Below are positions 7,896 to 54,525 of a DNA stretch of 64,000 nt, one piece after another. The DNA is from Methanobacteriota archaeon (GTDB lineage: Archaea > Halobacteriota > Bog-38 > Methanoflorentales > Methanoflorentaceae). The notes beneath the pieces are model-generated. The model had not been told where the DNA came from. It searched no databases and saw only the letters and a list, made by a program, of their open reading frames with translations. The DNA lies in contig OY970393.1 of assembly GCA_963720465.1 (NCBI GenBank), forward strand, positions 224,001 through 288,000, written 5' to 3'. Both the position numbers and the translations under genes were made by a program. How positions within the stretch are numbered: position 1 is the first letter of the stretch; every line of letters starts with the position of its first letter.

Positions 7896-8035
7896 TCTAG
7901 ATAATAGGGAGCGCACAGAATAAAAAGCATTATGGGCAGCCAGACGGCTTTTATATATTACTCTACTAATAGACAACTGCATAAACAAGAAAGATGAAGA
8001 ACTTAAGAAACGTCGCGGCCAGCACAGACCGATCC

Positions 8036-8539
8036 ATGTGGATAGAGCTTGACGGGTGGCAGGCAAAGCTCCGATTTTCAGCGTGCCATTTTATACCGGA
8101 TCACCCGAAATGCGGGCGCTTGCACGGGCATACATATGCTATGAGTGCGAAGATCGTCGGCGCGCAGATTCACGATTTTGTAATGGACTTTGAGGACCTC
8201 AAAAGACAAGTTGCAGAGATCTGTGAAGCTCTCGATCATAAAATTCTGCTCGCATCTCGAGACGCGGATGTCCAGATACGGAACACGGGCGCTGGAGATA
8301 TCGCGGTCACGGTCGGAAAGTGTGGGAAGCGTTACTGCTTCCCGAGAGAGGACGTGTTTATGCTCCCCATCAATTCTGCGAGCGCTGAAGATCTTTGTTC
8401 CTTCCTCCTCGATGAGCTTTGTAACAAGCTTGACCTCAGCGCTATAACAGAAGTCAGCGTCCGTTTAGATGAGGGTTTGGGGCAAGGCGCAGGCAGCGTC
8501 CGGTACTTTCGCTCTCAAGACAAGCAACTCAGGGCCTAG
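8036..8539 (+). CDS. queD: 6-carboxytetrahydropterin synthase / PTPS family
   Basis: FSACH, CGRLHGHTY, DH+LL, SAE motifs; likely start ATG 8036. Confidence 0.8.
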   Translation: MWIELDGWQAKLRFSACHFIPDHPKCGRLHGHTYAMSAKIVGAQIHDFVMDFEDLKRQVAEICEALDHKILLASRDADVQIRNTGAGDIAVTVGKCGKRYCFPREDVFMLPINSASAEDLCSFLLDELCNKLDLSAITEVSVRLDEGLGQGAGSVRYFRSQDKQLRA

Positions 8540-8667
8540 TTGAACGCCGCATTCCATTTTTTTTTCCTGCCGAGGGCAGATCGTTTTGCGAGCCAATTCT
8601 GAACAGCAAAGATATAAAGTTATGATCAGACATATACGGAGTTTAGACGGTTACAAGGGAGTGGAGC

Positions 8668-9414
8668 ATGTTTAAAGCTGATATTCTCGGAGAGACTTTG
8701 AAGGAAGGCATCGAAGCGTTGACTATCATTGTTGATGAAGCGCGGGTACATTTAAGCAAAGATGGCCTGTACGCGAGAAATGCAGACCCATCGTACGTGG
8801 CTATGGTGCAGTTTGAATTGTCGGTTAAAGCTTTTGAAAACTATGAAACTGACGATGAGGTTGTCACACTTGATCTCAAGAAAATGCAGGACATTCTTGA
8901 GCTGGCTAATCGTACAGATGTCATCCGAATGGCCGTTGACGAGAACCGAATGGCCTTGTCATTTGGAGATCTTAAATACAGTATCGCACTCTTAAGTCCC
9001 TACTCGATAAAGAAGGAGCCCAAAGTGCCAAAGATTGAATCTGCTGCACACATCGTTATCACGGGAAAAGAGTTTAGGTGGGCGGTGAAAGCAGCAGGCA
9101 AAGTTAGTGACAATATCGCCCTTGGGTGCACTGACACTGACTTTTTCATGGAAGCTCTTGGTGACTCTGATACTATGCGTCTCGAGCTGTCAAAAGATCA
9201 GCTTATCGACGTATCGCGCACCGATGGCAAAACAGATGAAGTAAGATCACTTTTTAGTCTTGAATTCTTGCTTGAAATGTCCAAAGCAGTCGGAAAGGCT
9301 TCTGAAGTCTCTCTCGACATGGGCAAGAACATACCACTCAAGGTTGCATTTGAGTTTGCCGACGGCAACGGTTCTGTCTCGTATCTCTTGGCGCCGCGTA
9401 TCGAACAAGAATAA
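8668..9414 (+). CDS. pcn: DNA polymerase sliding clamp PCNA
   Basis: MFKA, DPSYVAMV, SLFSLEFL, YLLAPRIE. Confidence 0.95.
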   Translation: MFKADILGETLKEGIEALTIIVDEARVHLSKDGLYARNADPSYVAMVQFELSVKAFENYETDDEVVTLDLKKMQDILELANRTDVIRMAVDENRMALSFGDLKYSIALLSPYSIKKEPKVPKIESAAHIVITGKEFRWAVKAAGKVSDNIALGCTDTDFFMEALGDSDTMRLELSKDQLIDVSRTDGKTDEVRSLFSLEFLLEMSKAVGKASEVSLDMGKNIPLKVAFEFADGNGSVSYLLAPRIEQE

Positions 9415-9451
9415 AACTCAAACGCCGTCGCACTGGGCCGACGCGAGAAGC

Positions 9452-10454
9452 ATGGACGAATATTTAGCTCTTTTTCCATATACGGCTGCAGCAGCACGTT
9501 ACGTAGAAGCATCCGCAAGGACCTTTGACTCTCTCATGACCGCTGGGGAGTTCTCTGAGAGCGTCCTCAACAAAAGCGTTCACCGAGTCGCACGAGCGAT
9601 CGATAGCGACGTCCATTCAAAGCCAGTCGAGCGTGACGATTGTGAAATTGAGCTCTTCTCTTACGTCATGGGGAGGGTATTAGTCTCGTGCATTCGTGAA
9701 GCGGTTCTGGTTCAGAAATATGCAAACACGGAAGCCCACGGCGCATTTAGCAAGTTGCGCAACGCCAGCGAACGACTTCAGGACGAGTACATTGCAAGGC
9801 TGCTGGAGGACTTTGAGATACCCGTATCGGAAGACAACAATATTTTCGAGTTGCATTTCGCGGACTTGATCAAGTATACGGGTAGATTAAGAGGGCCACA
9901 GTGGCGCCTCGTTAACCTATTGAACAGAGGCCACGTAACTCTTGCAAAAAATGAGATGATCCAGGTTTTGGCCGAGGCCGTGAGGCTCAAGGTGCTACGC
10001 GGGCTGCCACTAAAACTGAGCAGCAAAATGTGCGAAGAACTTGCGCCTTACACCTCACCCTTGAAAAAAGCGGTCTCTGTAGCCTCATCGCGCCCTGCTG
10101 ATTCTGGTCCTGTGATTTTGGAAGCGTGCCCTCCGTGCATGAAAGCGCTGCTTTCGCAAGTAAAAGCTGGACAGAACCTCTCACATCCCGGTCGATTCGC
10201 GTTGACCTCCTTTTTAGCGAACATAGGTATGAAAGCCGAGGAGATCGTGCGTATCTATGAAACATCTCCAGATTTCGACTACGAACTTACGCGTTATCAG
10301 GTCGATCACATAAAGGGAGCGTCGGGGAAAGACTACGTCCCTCCCGGATGTTCAACGATGGAGACCTACGGCAATTGTACCTGAGACCACAGGCCTGTGT
10401 AAACGTATCTCTCATCCGCTCTCGTATTACCGAGCGCGACTTAAGCATCAGTAA
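9452..10454 (+). CDS. priL: DNA primase large subunit (frameshift near 10378; last 25 codons in another frame)
   Basis: FPY, WRLVN, PPCM, NLSH.GRF, YQVDHI, Y.PP.C.TM...GNC; the shifted frame continues VPETTGLCKRISHPLSYY to TAA at 10452-10454. Confidence 0.9.
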
Positions 10455-25162: not shown

Positions 25163-26431
25163 CTATTGAAGCCGCGGGAGAGTGAGCGCTCCGTACGGCA
25201 TGACTGTAATTCGGGCATCTGGCCCATACTTTCGCGCTGTTTCCCGTAGAGCATCATCCAAATCTCGTGCGCAGAGTAAAAATGCGCGCTCCACAATCTC
25301 TTCTTGAAGCTCAGACACGAGATAAACATCGGCTTTTTGGGTGAGCTTAGCCAGAATTCCGGCCTTATGTCCGCCGATTTCGAATGCGTAGTCGAGCCTG
25401 TCAACAAGCTCCTGTTTGCTATGAGCTTCGTTAATCCATCGTTCAAACACTTTTTCACCCAATCCTTCTGGACACTCGGCCGCCAGCACGATCGCGCCAC
25501 CCTCCTTCATCGCGTATTTCGCATTGTCTAGCGCTTTCTGTGCTTGAAAGAGGTTTATATCCTTGGGTGTACCTCCAGCTGAAACGAGCACGACATCAGC
25601 GAGTTCGGTAATCGGAATTATGTACATCGAATCAACGACTTTGACGCCTTCGCGGTGCGCTGCAATGGGATCACCTGCCACAGCTTTTACGATCTGCTTT
25701 TTTGAGTTAAGCACGACGTTTACGAGAAAGTCGCATCCGATCAACTGGCCCGCCTCCTCTAGATCTTTTCTTACAGGGCTGTCTAGCCTTCCGGCGGTCG
25801 CGTTTGGCTGTAGCATAAGTTTATGATTGGCTTCAATAGTCTCTCGCGCGCAGATGCCAGGGAGCAGTGACTTGTATCCGCCGCTGTATCCTGCAAAGTA
25901 GTGGAGTTCAACCGCTCCCAGGCAAATTCTCACATCGGAGTCTAGAGCCAGTGTGTTGGCATGAACACACGTGCCTCGCGACGTTGTTCCTACAAAAGCG
26001 CACTCATTCGCGTCGTGGTTGACGCAATGGTAATTGTCAAAGACATCATCGCCCACGAGCGTTCTCATCTCTGGTTCGGATAACGTCCTGTGAATTCCCA
26101 GAGCAAACAAAATCGTCACCGAATCTTCAGGTATCCCGCCTTTGTGCAGGTCTCTTAAAACATGAGGAAGCAACTTCTTGGTCGGCGTCGGCCTCGTTAT
26201 GTCACTCACGATGATGACGGCGGTCAAGTCTTTTTTGGAGGCCTTGCGCGTTGACACGATTTCGTGGAGCATGGGTGTCTCAAGAGGATGTTGCATCGCG
26301 CGGACAATCTCACTTTCTTCATCTCCAGCCTCGATTTCCTTTGGTTGTATTACTTGAATGAGGTTTCTTTTGTTTAGCGTTGCGGCGGTTTTTCGGTCTC
26401 CGTATTTGAGAGTCACCCGAGATTTGCCCAT
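25163..26431 (-). CDS. larA: LarA-family nickel-pincer hydroxyacid racemase/epimerase
   Basis: SDITRP, GIHR, HYFAGYSGG.KS..PG, NH, D.NLFQA.KAL, ECPEG.G. Confidence 0.88.
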   Translation of the reverse strand: MGKSRVTLKYGDRKTAATLNKRNLIQVIQPKEIEAGDEESEIVRAMQHPLETPMLHEIVSTRKASKKDLTAVIIVSDITRPTPTKKLLPHVLRDLHKGGIPEDSVTILFALGIHRTLSEPEMRTLVGDDVFDNYHCVNHDANECAFVGTTSRGTCVHANTLALDSDVRICLGAVELHYFAGYSGGYKSLLPGICARETIEANHKLMLQPNATAGRLDSPVRKDLEEAGQLIGCDFLVNVVLNSKKQIVKAVAGDPIAAHREGVKVVDSMYIIPITELADVVLVSAGGTPKDINLFQAQKALDNAKYAMKEGGAIVLAAECPEGLGEKVFERWINEAHSKQELVDRLDYAFEIGGHKAGILAKLTQKADVYLVSELQEEIVERAFLLCARDLDDALRETARKYGPDARITVMPYGALTLPRLQ

Positions 26432-26583
26432 ATAGGGACTGATAAGTATTTTTTAGTATATCAATATGCAACGCCCCAGAGAAGCTGTTCAAAACAAGGA
26501 GAAGTAGTTTCATATAGAATTGTTGCCATAAAAAGAACGTAGTTGCGTTATATCGTATTGCGACGAAGTGGAGGAGCCTAAAG

Positions 26584-27858
26584 TTGTACAGATCGTATGC
26601 TGAGATGCCGAAAATCGAGCTTCCGGGCGATTTGGAGGTCAAGATTAGTGACAGCACCCTGAGAGACGGGTCCCAAATGCCGGGCATCGTATTAAAGAAA
26701 GCACAGAAGCTTAAGATATTCGAGTTTTTGCACGAAATGGGCATAGAAAAGCTCGAGTGTTTTGTTTTCAATGAGAGAGACCGCAGCTTAGCCCGGGATA
26801 TGCTCGATTGCAATTATGATCATCCAGAAATCACAGGGTGGGCGCGCGCCAACGTCGCCGATATTGATATGAACCTTAGCATGGACGGCATAAACGAGGT
26901 AGGCATTCTGATGTCCATATCGGACACGCACATTTTCGACAAACTTGGCTTGAAGGATCGAGAACAAGCGCGCGACAAGTACGCCGAAGCTCTCCAATAC
27001 GCTGTCGATCACGGGTTGAAGGTACGATGCCATCTCGAGGATATTACGCGCGCCGATATCCCAAACTTCGTGATCCCTTTCGTCAAGGAATTGCTGGATA
27101 TTGCCCCTGACGCGATTTTTCGAATCTGTGATACTTTGAATTACGGCGTCCCGTTCGATGAGACTCCACTGCCGTACAGCATACCCAAGATCGTGCGTGC
27201 CTTCAAAGAGATCGGCGCCGAGGATCTCGAAATGCACGTTCACGATGACTTTGGACTTGGCGTTGCCAACACTTTGGCTGGGTACTGGTACGGAGCTAAC
27301 TGGTCGAGTTTGACGTTCATGGGCATAGGTGAACGGGCAGGAAATACCGAGCTTGAAAAGATTCTCACCTTTCTTTTTTGTCGCGTGAAGGGATTCGAAA
27401 AGTACAACCCTACACCAGTTACGGAGCTCACCCGCTATCTGGAACACGAGCTTGCTTTTAGACTCCCGCGAAACAAGGCCATTGTCGGCGAAAACATTTT
27501 CGCCCACGAAAGCGGCATACATACTGACGGCGTGTTGAAGAACCCTTTTACGTACGAGCCGTTTCCACCAGAGGTTGTAGGCGGACAGCGCGTGCTTCTC
27601 ATAGGAGACTCCTCTGGGAGGGAAGTAGTGCGCCACAAGATGCAGGAAGTCCTGAACGAGCTTCTGGGCGTCGAGGTGAACTTGAGGAAAAACGACCGCA
27701 GGATTAAGATGATCTGCAACGACATTCACAAACTTTACGATGAGGAGGCGCGCACGTCCAGCGTCTCAGATGATGAACTCAAGGAGTACGCGATTAAATA
27801 CTTCCTCACGACCGAGGAAGCGTTCCCGCCCTGGATTGCCCACACTCGTTACGAATAA
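26584..27858 (+). CDS. DRE-TIM metallolyase, Re-citrate synthase-like (IPM/homocitrate synthase superfamily)
   Basis: DSTLRDGSQ, RCHLEDITRAD, RICDTLNYGVP...LP.SIPKIV, HVHDDFG, GIGERAGNTELE, AHESGIH.DG..KN; lacks the LeuA regulatory domain. Confidence 0.75.
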   Translation: MYRSYAEMPKIELPGDLEVKISDSTLRDGSQMPGIVLKKAQKLKIFEFLHEMGIEKLECFVFNERDRSLARDMLDCNYDHPEITGWARANVADIDMNLSMDGINEVGILMSISDTHIFDKLGLKDREQARDKYAEALQYAVDHGLKVRCHLEDITRADIPNFVIPFVKELLDIAPDAIFRICDTLNYGVPFDETPLPYSIPKIVRAFKEIGAEDLEMHVHDDFGLGVANTLAGYWYGANWSSLTFMGIGERAGNTELEKILTFLFCRVKGFEKYNPTPVTELTRYLEHELAFRLPRNKAIVGENIFAHESGIHTDGVLKNPFTYEPFPPEVVGGQRVLLIGDSSGREVVRHKMQEVLNELLGVEVNLRKNDRRIKMICNDIHKLYDEEARTSSVSDDELKEYAIKYFLTTEEAFPPWIAHTRYE

Positions 27859-27971
27859 AAGCTAGGGGAGGAAGCAATACGAAGCAGTGCCGCTACCGAA
27901 GGCGTGAGCGTGTCCTGCTCGGATCGGAAAGCTTAGATTTTTACTCTTGCGTCCTCGCCGGCGAAGGCATT

Positions 27972-28163
27972 ATGGTTCACGAAGTACAGTGCGATGAGTG
28001 CACGATCGAAACGTTGCGTGAAAGCTTCGATTGTCGGCACATGTCTCCGAAAAAGCGCTTCGTGAGCGGGGGACATTCTCAAGAGTGCGTGAGCTGCAGC
28101 AAGAAAGGTCTCTTGTTAGACCAAAGCCGCAGCGCGTGCGCAGCTTGTCCAGAAAAGGAATAA
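27972..28163 (+). CDS. Hypothetical 63-aa Cys-rich protein (three CxxC)
   Basis: CDEC, CVSC, CAAC plus one more Cys; T-rich TATA-like stretch about 30 nt upstream; fills a gap with no other gene. Confidence 0.45.
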   Translation: MVHEVQCDECTIETLRESFDCRHMSPKKRFVSGGHSQECVSCSKKGLLLDQSRSACAACPEKE

Positions 28164-28194
28164 CGCTTTGGTCGGTCGCGTCAAGGAGCTCGGT

Positions 28195-29211
28195 CTAGGC
28201 CCCCTCAACTTTTTCGATGAGGCAATCGGTCACTTGGCTCGTTCTGAGAGCGCCTCCGAGGTCGTACGTCGTTTTGCCTTCGGCAACAGTCTCTTGGAGA
28301 GCGTTGAATATCATCGCGGATTCGCGTTTCAAGCCCAAGTAATCGAGCATCCACGCTCCAGCAAGTACGGTGGCGGTGGGATTCACCTTGTCAAGGTTTT
28401 GATACTTGGGGGCTGAACCGTGGGCGGGTTCAAACATGGCATAAGTGTCGCCGAAATTCGCCGAGTAAATCATTCCAATGCTCCCGACCAGCGCCGCACA
28501 CTCTTCACTTAGTATGTCCATGAAGAGGTTAGTAGACAGTAATATCGATTTGTTGAATATCTGCGGATTTTTCACGAGTTGTTGTGCGACGTTGTCCACG
28601 TGGTACTCCCAGAGTCCAATGTTTGAGAACTCACTTTTTATCTCGCGGACGGCTTGGAGAAAAGCGCCGTCCGTCTGCTTTAGTATGTTACTCTTGTGGA
28701 TAGCGACAACAGTTGTCCAGCTTCGCTTGTCCGCCTCTATAAAAGCGAAGTGAGCTATTCTTCGACTCGCCGATTTCGTGATTTTCCGTAGGGCGACGTA
28801 CATGTCTCCCGAGAGCTGCACTTCACTGCCCGCGTACATGCCTTCAGTCGCTTCACGCACGCACACAAAGTCGACATCTCCAAGAGGACGGGGGGTATTG
28901 GGAAACGTTCGTATCGGACGAACGTTTGCAAATAGGTCCTTTTCCTGTCTAATGGTAACGGCGACACTGCGCGGGGAACCAGGCCCCCCAGGTGTTGTGG
29001 TCGGCCCTTTGAAACAGGCTTGAGTTGAGTTGATTACGTCCCAGGTCTCATTGGGAATTAATGAGTTTCCTGCGTGAGACTCGTACCAATCGCTTCCCGC
29101 GTGACAAGGGATCATATTTACGGGCGCTCCGGTAGCAGTGACGATTCGCATCATTGCTTTGACCAGTTCAGGTCCAACTCCATCTCCCAATATAACGGCT
29201 ACTTCTTGCAT
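28195..29211 (-). CDS. Isocitrate/isopropylmalate dehydrogenase family, IDH-like
   Basis: GDGVGPE, KGPTTTP..RSVAVTIRQ, REATEGMY, HKSNILK, NLFMDILS, FEPAHGSAPKY. Confidence 0.88.
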   Translation of the reverse strand: MQEVAVILGDGVGPELVKAMMRIVTATGAPVNMIPCHAGSDWYESHAGNSLIPNETWDVINSTQACFKGPTTTPGGPGSPRSVAVTIRQEKDLFANVRPIRTFPNTPRPLGDVDFVCVREATEGMYAGSEVQLSGDMYVALRKITKSASRRIAHFAFIEADKRSWTTVVAIHKSNILKQTDGAFLQAVREIKSEFSNIGLWEYHVDNVAQQLVKNPQIFNKSILLSTNLFMDILSEECAALVGSIGMIYSANFGDTYAMFEPAHGSAPKYQNLDKVNPTATVLAGAWMLDYLGLKRESAMIFNALQETVAEGKTTYDLGGALRTSQVTDCLIEKVEGA

Positions 29212-29253
29212 TGCCTCACCAGAATGGTTCAGTTGTCAAAAACGCTGAATTGG

Positions 29254-29766
29254 CTAATCCGTGAATCCGCCACGGGTGTCCAAGTATTGCATTAGTCCGC
29301 CTTTCGCTAACAATTCTTGCATGAACTGTGGAATGGGCTTGAAGTGATACTCAGCATTTCGATTCTCGCTTCGAATCACCCCTTTACCGAAATCTACGTT
29401 AAGCATCTCGCCTCGGGTCACGTTGTTTGAGATGCTTTCGCACTCCACCAATGGAAGGCCGATATTGAAGCCATTTCGGTAGAATATACGTGCGAAAGAG
29501 TCGGCGATGACGCAGGAGATGCCACAAGCTTTGAGAACCTGTGGCGCTTGCTCTCGTGACGAGCCGCACCCGAAGTTCGCCCCAGCAACCAGAATTGGAT
29601 CTTTCAAGCGCTTGCAATCATCATAAAAGTGCGTATCGAGTGATTCAAACGTGTGCCGAGCGAGCTTATTCAAGTCGAGCTCATCATATTTGTATTTGCC
29701 AGCAATAATCTCATCTGTGTTGGTATCACTAGGAAATACTCGGACAACTTTCCCCTCAATTTTCAT
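29254..29766 (-). CDS. LeuD/HacB-type aconitase-family small subunit
   Basis: [31 protein letters not shown]. Confidence 0.92.
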
Positions 29767-29790
29767 GTTTCCCTCTATCGAGAATAGCCT

Positions 29791-31026
29791 TCAACGCTCC
29801 AAACCTCGCGGATCTGTGATCTTCCCTTCGATCGCACTTGCTGCCGCTGTTGACGGACTCGATAGGTAAATGAACGAAGTGTTGTTACCCATCCTACCTT
29901 TGAAGTTTCTGTTTTGTGTGGAAAGGGCAACTTCTCCATCTCCCAAGGCGACCGTCCTTCCTATGCAAAAGCCGCATCCAGGGGGGCCTATCGAGGCGCC
30001 TGCCTTCAGAAGCGTTTCTAGGACTCCCTCTTTGAGGGCTTCTAGAAGGACATCGCGGCTTGCAGGGTAGACCACCAGTCGCGCTTTGCTCCGATGTCCG
30101 TCCAGAATGCGTGCTGCGGCGCGGAGATCTTCAATCCGTCCGTTGGTGCACGAGCCAATGCATACTTGGTCTAGCTCCTGACCTTCAACCTCTGTAACTG
30201 GAACGGCGTTATCGACTTTGTGGGGTTTAGCTATCATCGGAACGACAGTCTCGGCGCGAATACGGATCTCCTGAACGTAAAGGGCACCTTTATCGGCGTA
30301 TAAAGGCGTGAACTCATTGCCACGCCCGTACTGCGCTAGATACGCTTCAACCTTTTCATCTGCTGCGCACATTCCTACCTTTGCGCCGGCTTCAATCGCC
30401 ATGTTTGACAACGTTGCGCGGGACTCGATGCTCATCGCTTCAACAGTGTCGCCGTAGAATTCAAGAGCCTTATAAGTGGCTCCGTCGGCTGTTATTCGTG
30501 AAAGCAGTTCTAAGAATACGTCCTTCGAGTGAACGTTTTTCGGCAGTTTTCCAGAAACCTCTACGTGTACTGTTTCTGGCACTTTCAACCACGTTTTTCC
30601 GTAGGCCATGATCGAAGCTACGTCAGTCGAACCCATTCCGGTGGCGAAAGCGCCGAGTGCACCGTGGGTGCACGTGTGACTGTCCCCGCCTACGATTATC
30701 TTATAGGGCGACGCGTACCGTTCGAGGACAATTTGATGACAAATCCCATCACCATTTTCATAAAAATCCATTCCGTACGTATGGGCAAACTGCCGCATGA
30801 GCCTTTGGACGTTGGACACTTTCTCCGATGGAGAGGGTGATGCGTGATCGCAAAAAGCCACGACGCTTTCTGGAAATTTCACTGAGTGTCCGCCCAGTTC
30901 CTGGATCGCAAGCGGCAGTGTACCATCGTGGGCGAAAACCAAATCAACTGGGACGGTGACGATATCGCCACTCGCAGCATCAACCCCACTGCGCTTTGAT
31001 AGAACCTTCTCTGATATCGTTTTCAA
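29791..31026 (-). CDS. LeuC/HacA-type aconitase-family large subunit
   Basis: HDGT, DH, GICHQ, DSHTCT.GA, GSCTNGR, PGCGFCIG, STQNRNFKGRMG; GGAGG RBS before TTG. Confidence 0.93.
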   Translation of the reverse strand: MKTISEKVLSKRSGVDAASGDIVTVPVDLVFAHDGTLPLAIQELGGHSVKFPESVVAFCDHASPSPSEKVSNVQRLMRQFAHTYGMDFYENGDGICHQIVLERYASPYKIIVGGDSHTCTHGALGAFATGMGSTDVASIMAYGKTWLKVPETVHVEVSGKLPKNVHSKDVFLELLSRITADGATYKALEFYGDTVEAMSIESRATLSNMAIEAGAKVGMCAADEKVEAYLAQYGRGNEFTPLYADKGALYVQEIRIRAETVVPMIAKPHKVDNAVPVTEVEGQELDQVCIGSCTNGRIEDLRAAARILDGHRSKARLVVYPASRDVLLEALKEGVLETLLKAGASIGPPGCGFCIGRTVALGDGEVALSTQNRNFKGRMGNNTSFIYLSSPSTAAASAIEGKITDPRGLER

Positions 31027-53712: not shown

Positions 53713-54525
53713 TTATAACTTGATGCTGAACCTAGCCTTTCGATCGGCCCAGCACTGGATTGCCACTGCTACAGGAAGCATGGCGGTGTGACACGGGGCC
53801 TCTTCGACGAAAACGCGCAACGCAGTTGTGTCGCCGCCAAGGCCCATCGGTCCGATGCCTAGTTCGTTGATCTGTTCTAAGATCTCTGCTTCAAAGGGGC
53901 TCTGCTCTTCTTCTAAAGATCTCAACAGCGTTCTTTTCGCCAGACGCGCGCAGCCGTCAAACGTGCTTCCGATGCCTAGCCCCACAATAATAGGTGGACA
54001 CGGCTTGCCGCCGCTTTCCCGTATCGTGTTGAGGACGAACGGCATAATGTCTTGAAGCGGCTCCAGCATAGCCAAAGCGCTTACGTTTCCTGAACCCGCG
54101 CCGTTGACTAGCACGGCAACCGATAGCCTGTTCCCTTCGCTGACGTCACAAATCATATCGAAGAGCGGTTCATCGCAGCTCATTCTTGTGAGCGGGTAAA
54201 CCGCGTGTTTTCTGAGAGGCACTGCGTCAGTCGCACGCTGTACAGCAGTTGCGAGTGCCTCTATCAGGCCGAAATCGATGTTTGCTTCTCGTCCGATCTC
54301 TACAAAGAAGATAGGAACGCCCGTGTCCTGGCACATCGGAAGGCCAGCAGCACCCGCTAGCCTGACGTTTTCAAGAATTGCGCATATCTGTTCTTTGGCC
54401 CGATCGTCCGACTCGGCCTTTGTTGCTTTGGCGAGTGCCCGCGTAACATCGCGCGGCAGACGTGTCTCAGCTTCTTGCAGCGCCTGTGCCGCGTGACGTA
54501 TAAATGCTTCTCTATGAGACGGCAT
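53713..54525 (-). CDS. Class I fumarate hydratase/tartrate dehydratase alpha subunit (divergent)
   Basis: P.CQDTG, KPCPP, GIGPMGLGG.TT, CHTA, CWA.R; KGxGSEN replaced by NGAGSGN. Confidence 0.85.
   Translation of the reverse strand: MPSHREAFIRHAAQALQEAETRLPRDVTRALAKATKAESDDRAKEQICAILENVRLAGAAGLPMCQDTGVPIFFVEIGREANIDFGLIEALATAVQRATDAVPLRKHAVYPLTRMSCDEPLFDMICDVSEGNRLSVAVLVNGAGSGNVSALAMLEPLQDIMPFVLNTIRESGGKPCPPIIVGLGIGSTFDGCARLAKRTLLRSLEEEQSPFEAEILEQINELGIGPMGLGGDTTALRVFVEEAPCHTAMLPVAVAIQCWADRKARFSIKL

Follow-up and report, generated by a model that had tools for sequence, protein, structure and literature searches.

A 64,000-nucleotide stretch of the genome of a Methanobacteriota archaeon (contig OY970393.1, positions 224,001 to 288,000; hereafter the window) carries a short LeuA-family synthase gene that converges with a string of three genes for a LeuC-type protein, a LeuD-type protein and a dehydrogenase. 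A preliminary description had put this locus forward as a candidate module leading from oxaloacetate and acetyl-CoA to 2-oxoglutarate. The census, trees and co-occurrence presented here support that proposal at the level of sequence: the four genes probably encode a Re-type citrate synthase, a two-subunit aconitase of LeuCD type and an isocitrate dehydrogenase-like enzyme that supply 2-oxoglutarate. This reading is built on gene presence, the census of paralogues, tree position, motifs, co-occurrence and presence in RNA libraries, from which we infer the substrates, the stereochemistry and the action of the three enzymes in one pathway. The open reading frame (ORF) list holds all four as intact ORFs at 26584-31026, as previously given:

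26584..27858, plus strand: short LeuA-family (DRE-TIM) synthase, proposed Re-type citrate synthase; 424 aa, TTG start
28195..29211, minus strand: beta-decarboxylating dehydrogenase, proposed isocitrate dehydrogenase; 338 aa, Iso_dh
29254..29766, minus strand: LeuD-type small subunit, proposed aconitase small subunit; 170 aa, loop GKYKYDEL
29791..31026, minus strand: LeuC-type large subunit, proposed aconitase large subunit; 411 aa

On the minus strand the order is leuC-leuD-dehydrogenase, with gaps of 24 and 42 bp, and 336 bp separate the convergent synthase and dehydrogenase genes. Pfam assigns HMGL-like and HCS_D2 domains to the synthase, with the LeuA regulatory domain absent, Iso_dh to the dehydrogenase, and Aconitase_C and Aconitase to the other two. 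The convergent layout and the missing regulatory domain, both described earlier, are thus confirmed by the ORF list and Pfam, and the strings quoted at that time (RCHLEDITRAD, RICDTLNYGVPFDETPLPYSIPKIV and KGPTTTPGGPGSPRSVAVTIRQ) were all found in the window proteins.

Gene complement of the genome

The window genome is a single 2.31-Mb contig with a marker completeness of 91%. It contains four HMGL-type synthases (PF00682 has only four matches), three LeuC, three LeuD and three Iso_dh genes, and the window genes are therefore not its only leuBCD genes. Separate LeuA/CimA, LeuCD-LeuB and Aks-type sets were all found. Two long LeuA/CimA synthases with a long C-terminus score 643.7 and 677.5 against the isopropylmalate synthase cut-off of 517. 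One short AksA-like synthase adjoins a LeuC/LeuD/dehydrogenase cluster whose LeuD loop is YLRT (YLRTT), as in the solved structure 2pkp. Next to another LeuCD pair, whose loop is YLVL (YLVLN), comes a dehydrogenase scoring above the LeuB cut-off. The window genes hence form a fourth synthase and a third isomerase/dehydrogenase set, i.e. they are surplus to these.

Both the Si-citrate synthase and the AcnA-type aconitase, whose possible absence had been raised in the preliminary description, are missing from the window genome. The citrate synthase family PF00285 gave zero matches there; the control search with the same family gave matches in 13 of 14 named genomes. No AcnA/B-type aconitase was found, the aconitase-family genes of the genome all being of the three LeuC types. 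For the succinyl-CoA synthetase beta subunit (SucC) the genome yielded only 40.5 bits against a cut-off of 375.55, with stops inside. Two genes with glutamate-synthase domains are present and, since glutamate synthase is encoded, the genome needs 2-oxoglutarate. Among its few genes related to the tricarboxylic acid (TCA) cycle is a class I fumarate hydratase alpha-type gene within the window (53728-54489, minus strand; TIGR00722, 285 bits).

Affinities of the synthase, isomerase and dehydrogenase

The synthase falls under every NCBIfam cut-off (best score 251.5 against 484.75 bits), and its metal-binding and catalytic R-D and HxH motifs are intact (LRDG and HVHDDFG). Archaea of the same phylum supply its close homologues (61-96% identity), and after clustering at 50% identity the representatives drop abruptly from 61% to 42%. 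As had been expected, relatives are auto-annotated as enzymes of leucine or coenzyme B synthesis, the source names being isopropylmalate synthase, AksA ('putative homocitrate synthase AksA') and pyruvate carboxyltransferase. One protein that is 90% identical to the window synthase (P0003) bears the JGI/IMG name 'citrate (Re)-synthase'.

The window synthase and a protein named Acetivibrio thermocellus (P0416) are 35% identical over 430 residues. They have in common an N-terminal Y..SY.E.PK, the segment CHLEDITRAD (CHFEDITRAD in P0416) and CDTLxYGV followed by seven residues and LP.S(I/V)P. These motifs do not occur by chance: for 16 members of the bacterial sister clade the consensus reads PRCHLEDxTRAD and KIRLCDTMGxGVPYPxAxLPRSVPxLI. 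The seven-residue insert (YGV...LP) is absent from the genome's own AksA-like paralogue, and the motif observation made in the preliminary description therefore holds.

For the trees four groups were named: the window clade (W), the bacterial clade (A), the genome's own LeuA/CimA/AksA-like proteins (L) and a Hadarchaeal/Nitrososphaerial group (H). FastTree placed W as sister to the large clade A, apart from L and H. In a quick IQ-TREE run (LG+G4, 86 rows) the split of W+A from L+H received 100 in the Shimodaira-Hasegawa-like approximate likelihood ratio test (SH-aLRT), and in a careful run (LG+C20+F+G4, 46 rows) W+A was supported at 100/99 and occurred in 1000 of 1000 bootstrap trees. A grouping of W with L was rejected by the approximately unbiased (AU) test under the LG+C20 mixture (46 rows, p=0.000265, log-likelihood difference 37.5). 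By these measures the synthase appears not to group with LeuA, CimA or AksA.

A profile of clade A was used to scan genome contigs and retrieved 80 loci, all from Clostridia and mostly uncultured; C. kluyveri, Syntrophus and Dehalococcoides were absent from these 80 loci. Directly downstream of the synthase lies an aconitase of about 645 aa at 32/80 loci, and an Iso_dh gene as well at 22/80. One member, from an Acetivibrio sp. (L053), shares 89-90% identity with proteins named A. thermocellus, and JGI applies the name 'citrate (Re)-synthase' to four of its near relatives in the clade. As far as established, with the sequences of the purified enzymes outside the comparison, clade A would correspond to the Re-citrate synthase type of Clostridium kluyveri and Clostridium thermocellum. 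For C. thermocellum, PMC6115520 reports 13C labelling that indicates both Re- and Si-type citrate synthase activity, and a candidate gene, adjoining an aconitase gene, with 61% identity to the purified C. kluyveri enzyme. Both citrate synthase types are reported there for C. thermocellum and C. kluyveri alike.

A second Re-citrate synthase type is described in PMC12016533 for Dehalococcoides, C. difficile, Thermoanaerobacter and Heliomicrobium modesticaldum, where HM1_2993 is supported by knockout. According to the same source only about 28% of residues are identical between this type and that of C. kluyveri, and the two cluster apart. The resemblance to known Re-citrate synthases that had been claimed for the window protein thus concerns the C. 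kluyveri/C. thermocellum type. One protein (P0126) was guessed to be Dehalococcoides-like, and its search gave Hadarchaeales and Nitrososphaeria archaea instead. The protein Atlas returned generic names only, with the nearest clusters in Chloroflexota and Bacillota, and hardly any names were attached to the clusters of ten representatives. A NifV-type homocitrate synthase serving nitrogenase was also considered and rejected, as such an enzyme would need no LeuCD and dehydrogenase of its own and an Aks-type synthase is already present.

Pairing of LeuC with LeuD is a textbook case. The window proteins pass NCBIfam broad family models only, that for LeuC being 'aconitase/3-isopropylmalate dehydratase large subunit family'. 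LeuC lies under the equivalog cut-offs for HacA (445.6 against 550) and LEU2 (401.8 against 610), and together with its orthologues makes up an archaeal clade of its own (9 rows, SH-aLRT 99), the third besides those of HacA-like and LeuC proteins. The best solved matches of LeuD are 3vba (125 bits) and 2pkp (103 bits), and GCGSSREQA is conserved. Its loop is GKYKYDEL, as it is in five orthologues, and two more distant LeuD proteins encoded near a synthase have GKYKFDTL; the solved subunits carry YLRT (homoaconitase, 2pkp) and YLVY (isopropylmalate isomerase, 3vba). A literature search found no paper on a two-subunit or LeuCD-type aconitase. A further LeuC/LeuD pair occurs in a genome of family f2 that has Si-citrate synthase and no AcnA-type gene (L152, G024:C1:1485592-1489422). 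Its proteins are 50% and 40% identical to those of the window, join none of the three archaeal LeuC clades and are a candidate for another LeuCD-type aconitase.

The dehydrogenase scores nearly equally with the archaeal LeuB/AksF and isocitrate dehydrogenase models of NCBIfam (287 to 278 bits), all below cut-off. Its top three solved relatives are isocitrate dehydrogenases of NAD type (6lky, 225.8 bits); the Thermus homoisocitrate dehydrogenase follows closely at 213 bits. In the substrate segment RSVAV the Ser of the S-x-N motif is kept and the Asn is replaced by Ala. The Ser and Asn of this motif bind the distal carboxylate of isocitrate. As to the earlier view that the enzyme is like isocitrate dehydrogenase, the ranking of solved relatives speaks for it, the replaced Asn and the missed curated cut-offs against it.

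Distribution, gene neighbourhood and RNA libraries

The same 401 genomes of the phylum, with a completeness of at least 85%, were searched four times, with the following numbers of genomes positive:

Synthase, E up to 1e-100: 116/401
PF00285 (Si-citrate synthase): 244/401
Dehydrogenase, E up to 1e-110: 85/401
LeuC, E up to 1e-150: 41/401

Almost all of the 41 genomes with the LeuC orthologue also encode the synthase (40/41, the exception being G049, which is in 270 contigs) and the dehydrogenase (39/41), and 40/41 have no PF00285 match, the exception (G215) having weak matches only (2.9e-36). A closer inspection by family reveals the synthase without Si-citrate synthase in f1, f5, f6, f7, f9, f13, f15, f27 and f28, Si-citrate synthase without the synthase in f4, f8, f18, f19 and f21, and neither in f3, f12, f14, f22, f23 and f24. 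The exception is f2, in which the synthase is found in 57/57 genomes, Si-citrate synthase in 50/57, the dehydrogenase in 37/57 and the LeuC orthologue in 0/57. Two genomes of one f2 genus have weak PF00285 matches only. The Si-citrate synthase gene of Methanohalophilus mahii is described as carrying an in-frame amber codon (PMC3017947). The large f2 genome G392 has genes for an AcnA-type aconitase, Si-citrate synthase and an AcnX-family protein close together, in a stretch of 7 kb (G392:C1:4372123-4379051).

In two f2 genomes with Si-citrate synthase, the dehydrogenase orthologue (62-66% identity) is the only Iso_dh protein besides the LeuB-like and AksF-like ones, and its gene is convergent to the synthase gene, as in the window. 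Family f25 has the dehydrogenase orthologue together with Si-citrate synthase and lacks the synthase, a pattern that fits an isocitrate dehydrogenase role.

Gene neighbourhood was compared for 20 synthase loci from 20 genomes. At 8/20 loci the synthase has the orthologous dehydrogenase within 8 kb, at three more a more distant Iso_dh gene, and at 7/20 LeuCD. Family f20 has the synthase in only 6/16 genomes. At one f20 locus (L132, G108:C1:326739-343818; about 8004-10100) the orthologue matches residues 49-409 only, with an N-terminal fragment of 50 residues encoded separately some 870 bp upstream, and this gene may therefore be interrupted or decayed.

Parts of the stretch are held in 18 RNA runs, mostly peat metatranscriptomes. 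Four runs, each from a different study, yielded contigs over all four genes at 92-99% identity (30, 30, 30 and 25 of 30 bins), and a single 4.5-kb contig spans 26549-31087; such contigs, which may contain DNA, speak for presence only and not for strand, level or operon structure. The stretches left uncovered (5/30 bins in run X15) carry no meaning. In 4/4 of these runs an extra C stands behind 28199, within the last codons of the dehydrogenase, where it would affect the C-terminal residue or residues alone. It probably stems from strain variation or from misassembly of a short homopolymer. Two further features lie beside the synthase gene:

25163..26431, minus strand: LarA-family nickel-dependent malate racemase homologue; NF052593, 525.4 bits against a cut-off of 500
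26432..26583, no strand: divergent intergenic region between the racemase homologue and the synthase; RNA-library contig ends at 26547-26551

These contig ends, seen in three RNA runs, lie 33-37 nt upstream of the synthase start and give a weak hint of a transcript start there. The racemase homologue (LarAH6), which passes its NCBIfam equivalog cut-off, is divergent from the synthase and stands beside it at 2/2 loci of the sister genus and at 0/18 loci of other families; its tie to the four-gene module is uncertain. RNA-library contigs also stop at 26411-26415, within the first 20 nt of the racemase-homologue ORF, whose real start may be a few codons downstream of the listed one.

Proposed route, alternatives and relation to known systems

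In the proposed route, the synthase would make citrate from acetyl-CoA and oxaloacetate; as in its clostridial relatives, the stereochemistry would probably be Re-face. LeuC and LeuD would be the two subunits of a [4Fe-4S] hydro-lyase, derived from archaeal LeuCD/HacAB proteins, that takes citrate via cis-aconitate to isocitrate. The dehydrogenase would then convert isocitrate to 2-oxoglutarate by oxidative decarboxylation, and the 2-oxoglutarate would feed glutamate synthase. The clade position of LeuC and its sub-cut-off score mean that the aconitase activity is proposed from context, with orthology to a known aconitase lending no support. The score below the aconitate hydratase cut-off and the tree position make membership of a known aconitase type less probable, and do not lower the probability of a working role as aconitase.

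Several observations weigh against this proposal. The identity of the synthase to the A. thermocellus protein is only 35%, compared with 32% to its own AksA-like paralogue. A grouping of W with L was not rejected by the AU test under LG+G4 with 86 rows (p=0.319); the site-heterogeneous run on 46 rows was made after this result, and the test is weakened because the groups were named after a first tree had been seen. The trees were made without the purified enzymes of C. kluyveri, Syntrophus and Dehalococcoides. LeuC scores 375.8 with the aconitate hydratase model NF005558, whose cut-off is 612, and the archaeal two-subunit forms are separated in the tree from ten clostridial operon aconitases. 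The dehydrogenase falls short of all isocitrate dehydrogenase cut-offs in NCBIfam (280.6 against 509); S-x-N is present in 5/5 aligned solved isocitrate dehydrogenases, the archaeal clade having Ala in place of the Asn (Ser in the sister genus), and this clade also has unusual FMD and SEE motifs. Since f2 genomes mostly hold both synthases, the window synthase is not simply a replacement for Si-citrate synthase. The supply of oxaloacetate also weighs here, as phosphoenolpyruvate carboxylase (PF14010, PF00311), pyruvate carboxylase B (PF02436) and malic enzyme were not found in the genome. The sole candidate for a C3-carboxylating enzyme is a divergent ORF of 593 aa resembling ATP-type phosphoenolpyruvate carboxykinase (53.7 bits; G000:C1:1933925-1934674, outside the window), which is kept in 10/11 genomes of the family. 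Lastly, Methanocella paludicola is reported in PMC3146512 to require L-glutamate, which can replace yeast extract. A genome that encodes, letter for letter, a protein with the NCBI name M. paludicola SANAE (G051, P0056) contains orthologues of the synthase, LeuC (64%), LeuD (61%) and the dehydrogenase (64%) together with glutamate synthase. The module therefore either undersupplies 2-oxoglutarate in the culture conditions reported or makes something else.

The second of these outcomes is the substance of one alternative, which we consider unlikely: the trio would be an undescribed module for 2-oxoacid elongation in Halobacteriota archaea, the fourth of its kind, whose substrate is a keto acid different from oxaloacetate and whose product is not 2-oxoglutarate. 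The preliminary description had named a novel elongation cycle as its own alternative. Such a module would agree with a LeuD loop (YKYDEL) that fits no characterised class, with the Asn to Ala exchange in S-x-N, with a LeuC that is sister to the LeuC/HacA clades and not to aconitases, and with the malate racemase homologue beside the synthase in the window's family. The retention of the synthase beside Si-citrate synthase in f2 would also be accommodated, and the glutamate need of M. paludicola, reported despite all four genes, would then be real. However, it would leave the genome without any route to 2-oxoglutarate although glutamate synthase is kept, and the LeuC orthologue occurs almost only where Si-citrate synthase is missing (40/41 genomes). 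Moreover, the dehydrogenase orthologue is the only isocitrate dehydrogenase candidate in the f2 genomes tested, and the data yield no candidate for an alternative substrate.

A rather improbable alternative accepts the citrate synthase and the isocitrate dehydrogenase and assigns the aconitase step to an AcnX-family protein, LeuCD having another role. The window genome does have an AcnX gene (G000:C1:860053-861156). The transcriptome paper on Methanocella conradii (PMC6046458) takes the 'putative aconitase subunits' Mtc_1230-1231 as the aconitase of that species. This wording suggests the AcnX family. There is an AcnX gene at 1,198,112 in G031, which by our estimate may be near the place of Mtc_1230-1231. 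However, AcnX was found in 4/4 genomes tested, including G392 with its AcnA-type aconitase; its presence is therefore no marker of a lacking aconitase, unlike that of the LeuC orthologue. The LeuCD genes stand in one string with the dehydrogenase, and in archaea AcnX serves the mevalonate pathway as a dehydratase, which also counts against it here. That the four genes are ordinary redundant copies for leucine or coenzyme B biosynthesis is very improbable: names such as isopropylmalate synthase and 'putative homocitrate synthase AksA' and the best NCBIfam models (the LeuA, LeuB and LeuCD archaeal subfamily models) would suggest it, but the genome has separate LeuA/CimA, LeuCD-LeuB and Aks-type sets, the synthase reaches half the cut-off score and in the trees lies outside the LeuA/CimA/AksA clade, and the LeuD loop is neither YLVY nor YLRT.

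The proposed route to 2-oxoglutarate has been put forward in part before, in that its citrate synthase was proposed for Methanocella and a 90%-identical protein bears the IMG label. Manual curation of Methanocella (Lyu and Lu 2015, as related in PMC6046458) found a citrate synthase and an aconitase, and the latter source describes a 'novel citrate synthase' of M. conradii, Mtc_1389, as actively transcribed and names Mtc_1230-1231 as the aconitase. The module had been thought uncharacterised in methanogen-like archaea, which is to be amended for the citrate synthase part, curated earlier; it holds as regards assays, our literature search having found none for any enzyme of this clade. Among the sources consulted on Re-citrate synthase, one of which concerned a metagenome-assembled genome of Firmicutes, none assigned it to a methanogen or other archaeon. 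By a rough estimate, the locus-tag number Mtc_1389 fits position 1,324,498 in G031 and may belong to the orthologue of the window synthase. Methanocellales are described in PMC3146512 as without most TCA enzymes and unable to make 2-oxoglutarate, with isocitrate dehydrogenase and fumarase the only TCA enzymes reported for M. paludicola.

The same 2-oxoglutarate gap exists in the family of the window archaeon. If the proposal is true, a conserved synthase/LeuCD/dehydrogenase module would fill this gap in nine families of the phylum or more, the labels 'isopropylmalate' and 'AksA', which are widespread, would be corrected, and a third specificity class of archaeal LeuCD/HacAB isomerases would be added, an aconitase recruited independently of the bacterial enzymes.

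Comparison with known systems begins with Methanocella itself (f9). All its genomes have synthase, LeuCD and dehydrogenase orthologues that are 62-65% identical to those of the window, and the same proposal has been made for it. It differs from the proposal for the window in that the Methanocella work takes Mtc_1230-1231, and not the LeuCD pair, as the aconitase (PMC6046458). The LeuCD (3vba) and HacAB (2pkp) enzymes of Methanocaldococcus jannaschii share with the window pair the two-subunit architecture and GCGSSREQA, whereas the loop of the window LeuD is YKYDEL and not YLVY or YLRT, and the window LeuC forms a separate clade. With the Dehalococcoides/C. difficile/H. modesticaldum type the proposed enzyme would have in common that it is a LeuA-family citrate synthase of strict anaerobes, serving the oxidative branch; that type has been mislabelled as homocitrate synthase (PMC12016533).

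The closest likeness is to the C. kluyveri/C. thermocellum type (EC 2.3.3.3, K05942). Both synthases consist of an HMGL-like barrel and HCS_D2 with no regulatory domain, and share Y..(F)SY.E.PK, CH(L/F)EDITRAD and the seven-residue insert in CDTLxYGV....LP.S(I/V)P. They are sisters in the trees, have aconitase-family and Iso_dh genes as neighbours, and belong to anaerobes in which they stand in the absence of Si-citrate synthase or supplement it. Unlike that type, the window synthase belongs to a separate archaeal clade at 35% identity, with RDG(S/A/C)QMPG in place of RDGQQ. Its isomerase consists of separate LeuC and LeuD subunits, whose origin differs from that of the fused clostridial aconitase of about 645 aa. 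The window dehydrogenase is short (338 aa), resembles NAD-type isocitrate dehydrogenases and has RSVAV, whereas the dehydrogenases of the clostridial operons keep S-x-N (ESANV). In addition, the window synthase is convergent and not co-directional with the other genes. Taken together, the module is most likely a variant of the clostridial Re-citrate synthase/aconitase/isocitrate dehydrogenase system, with an archaeal synthase clade, a split isomerase that was recruited independently and bears a new specificity loop, and a dehydrogenase that is atypical.

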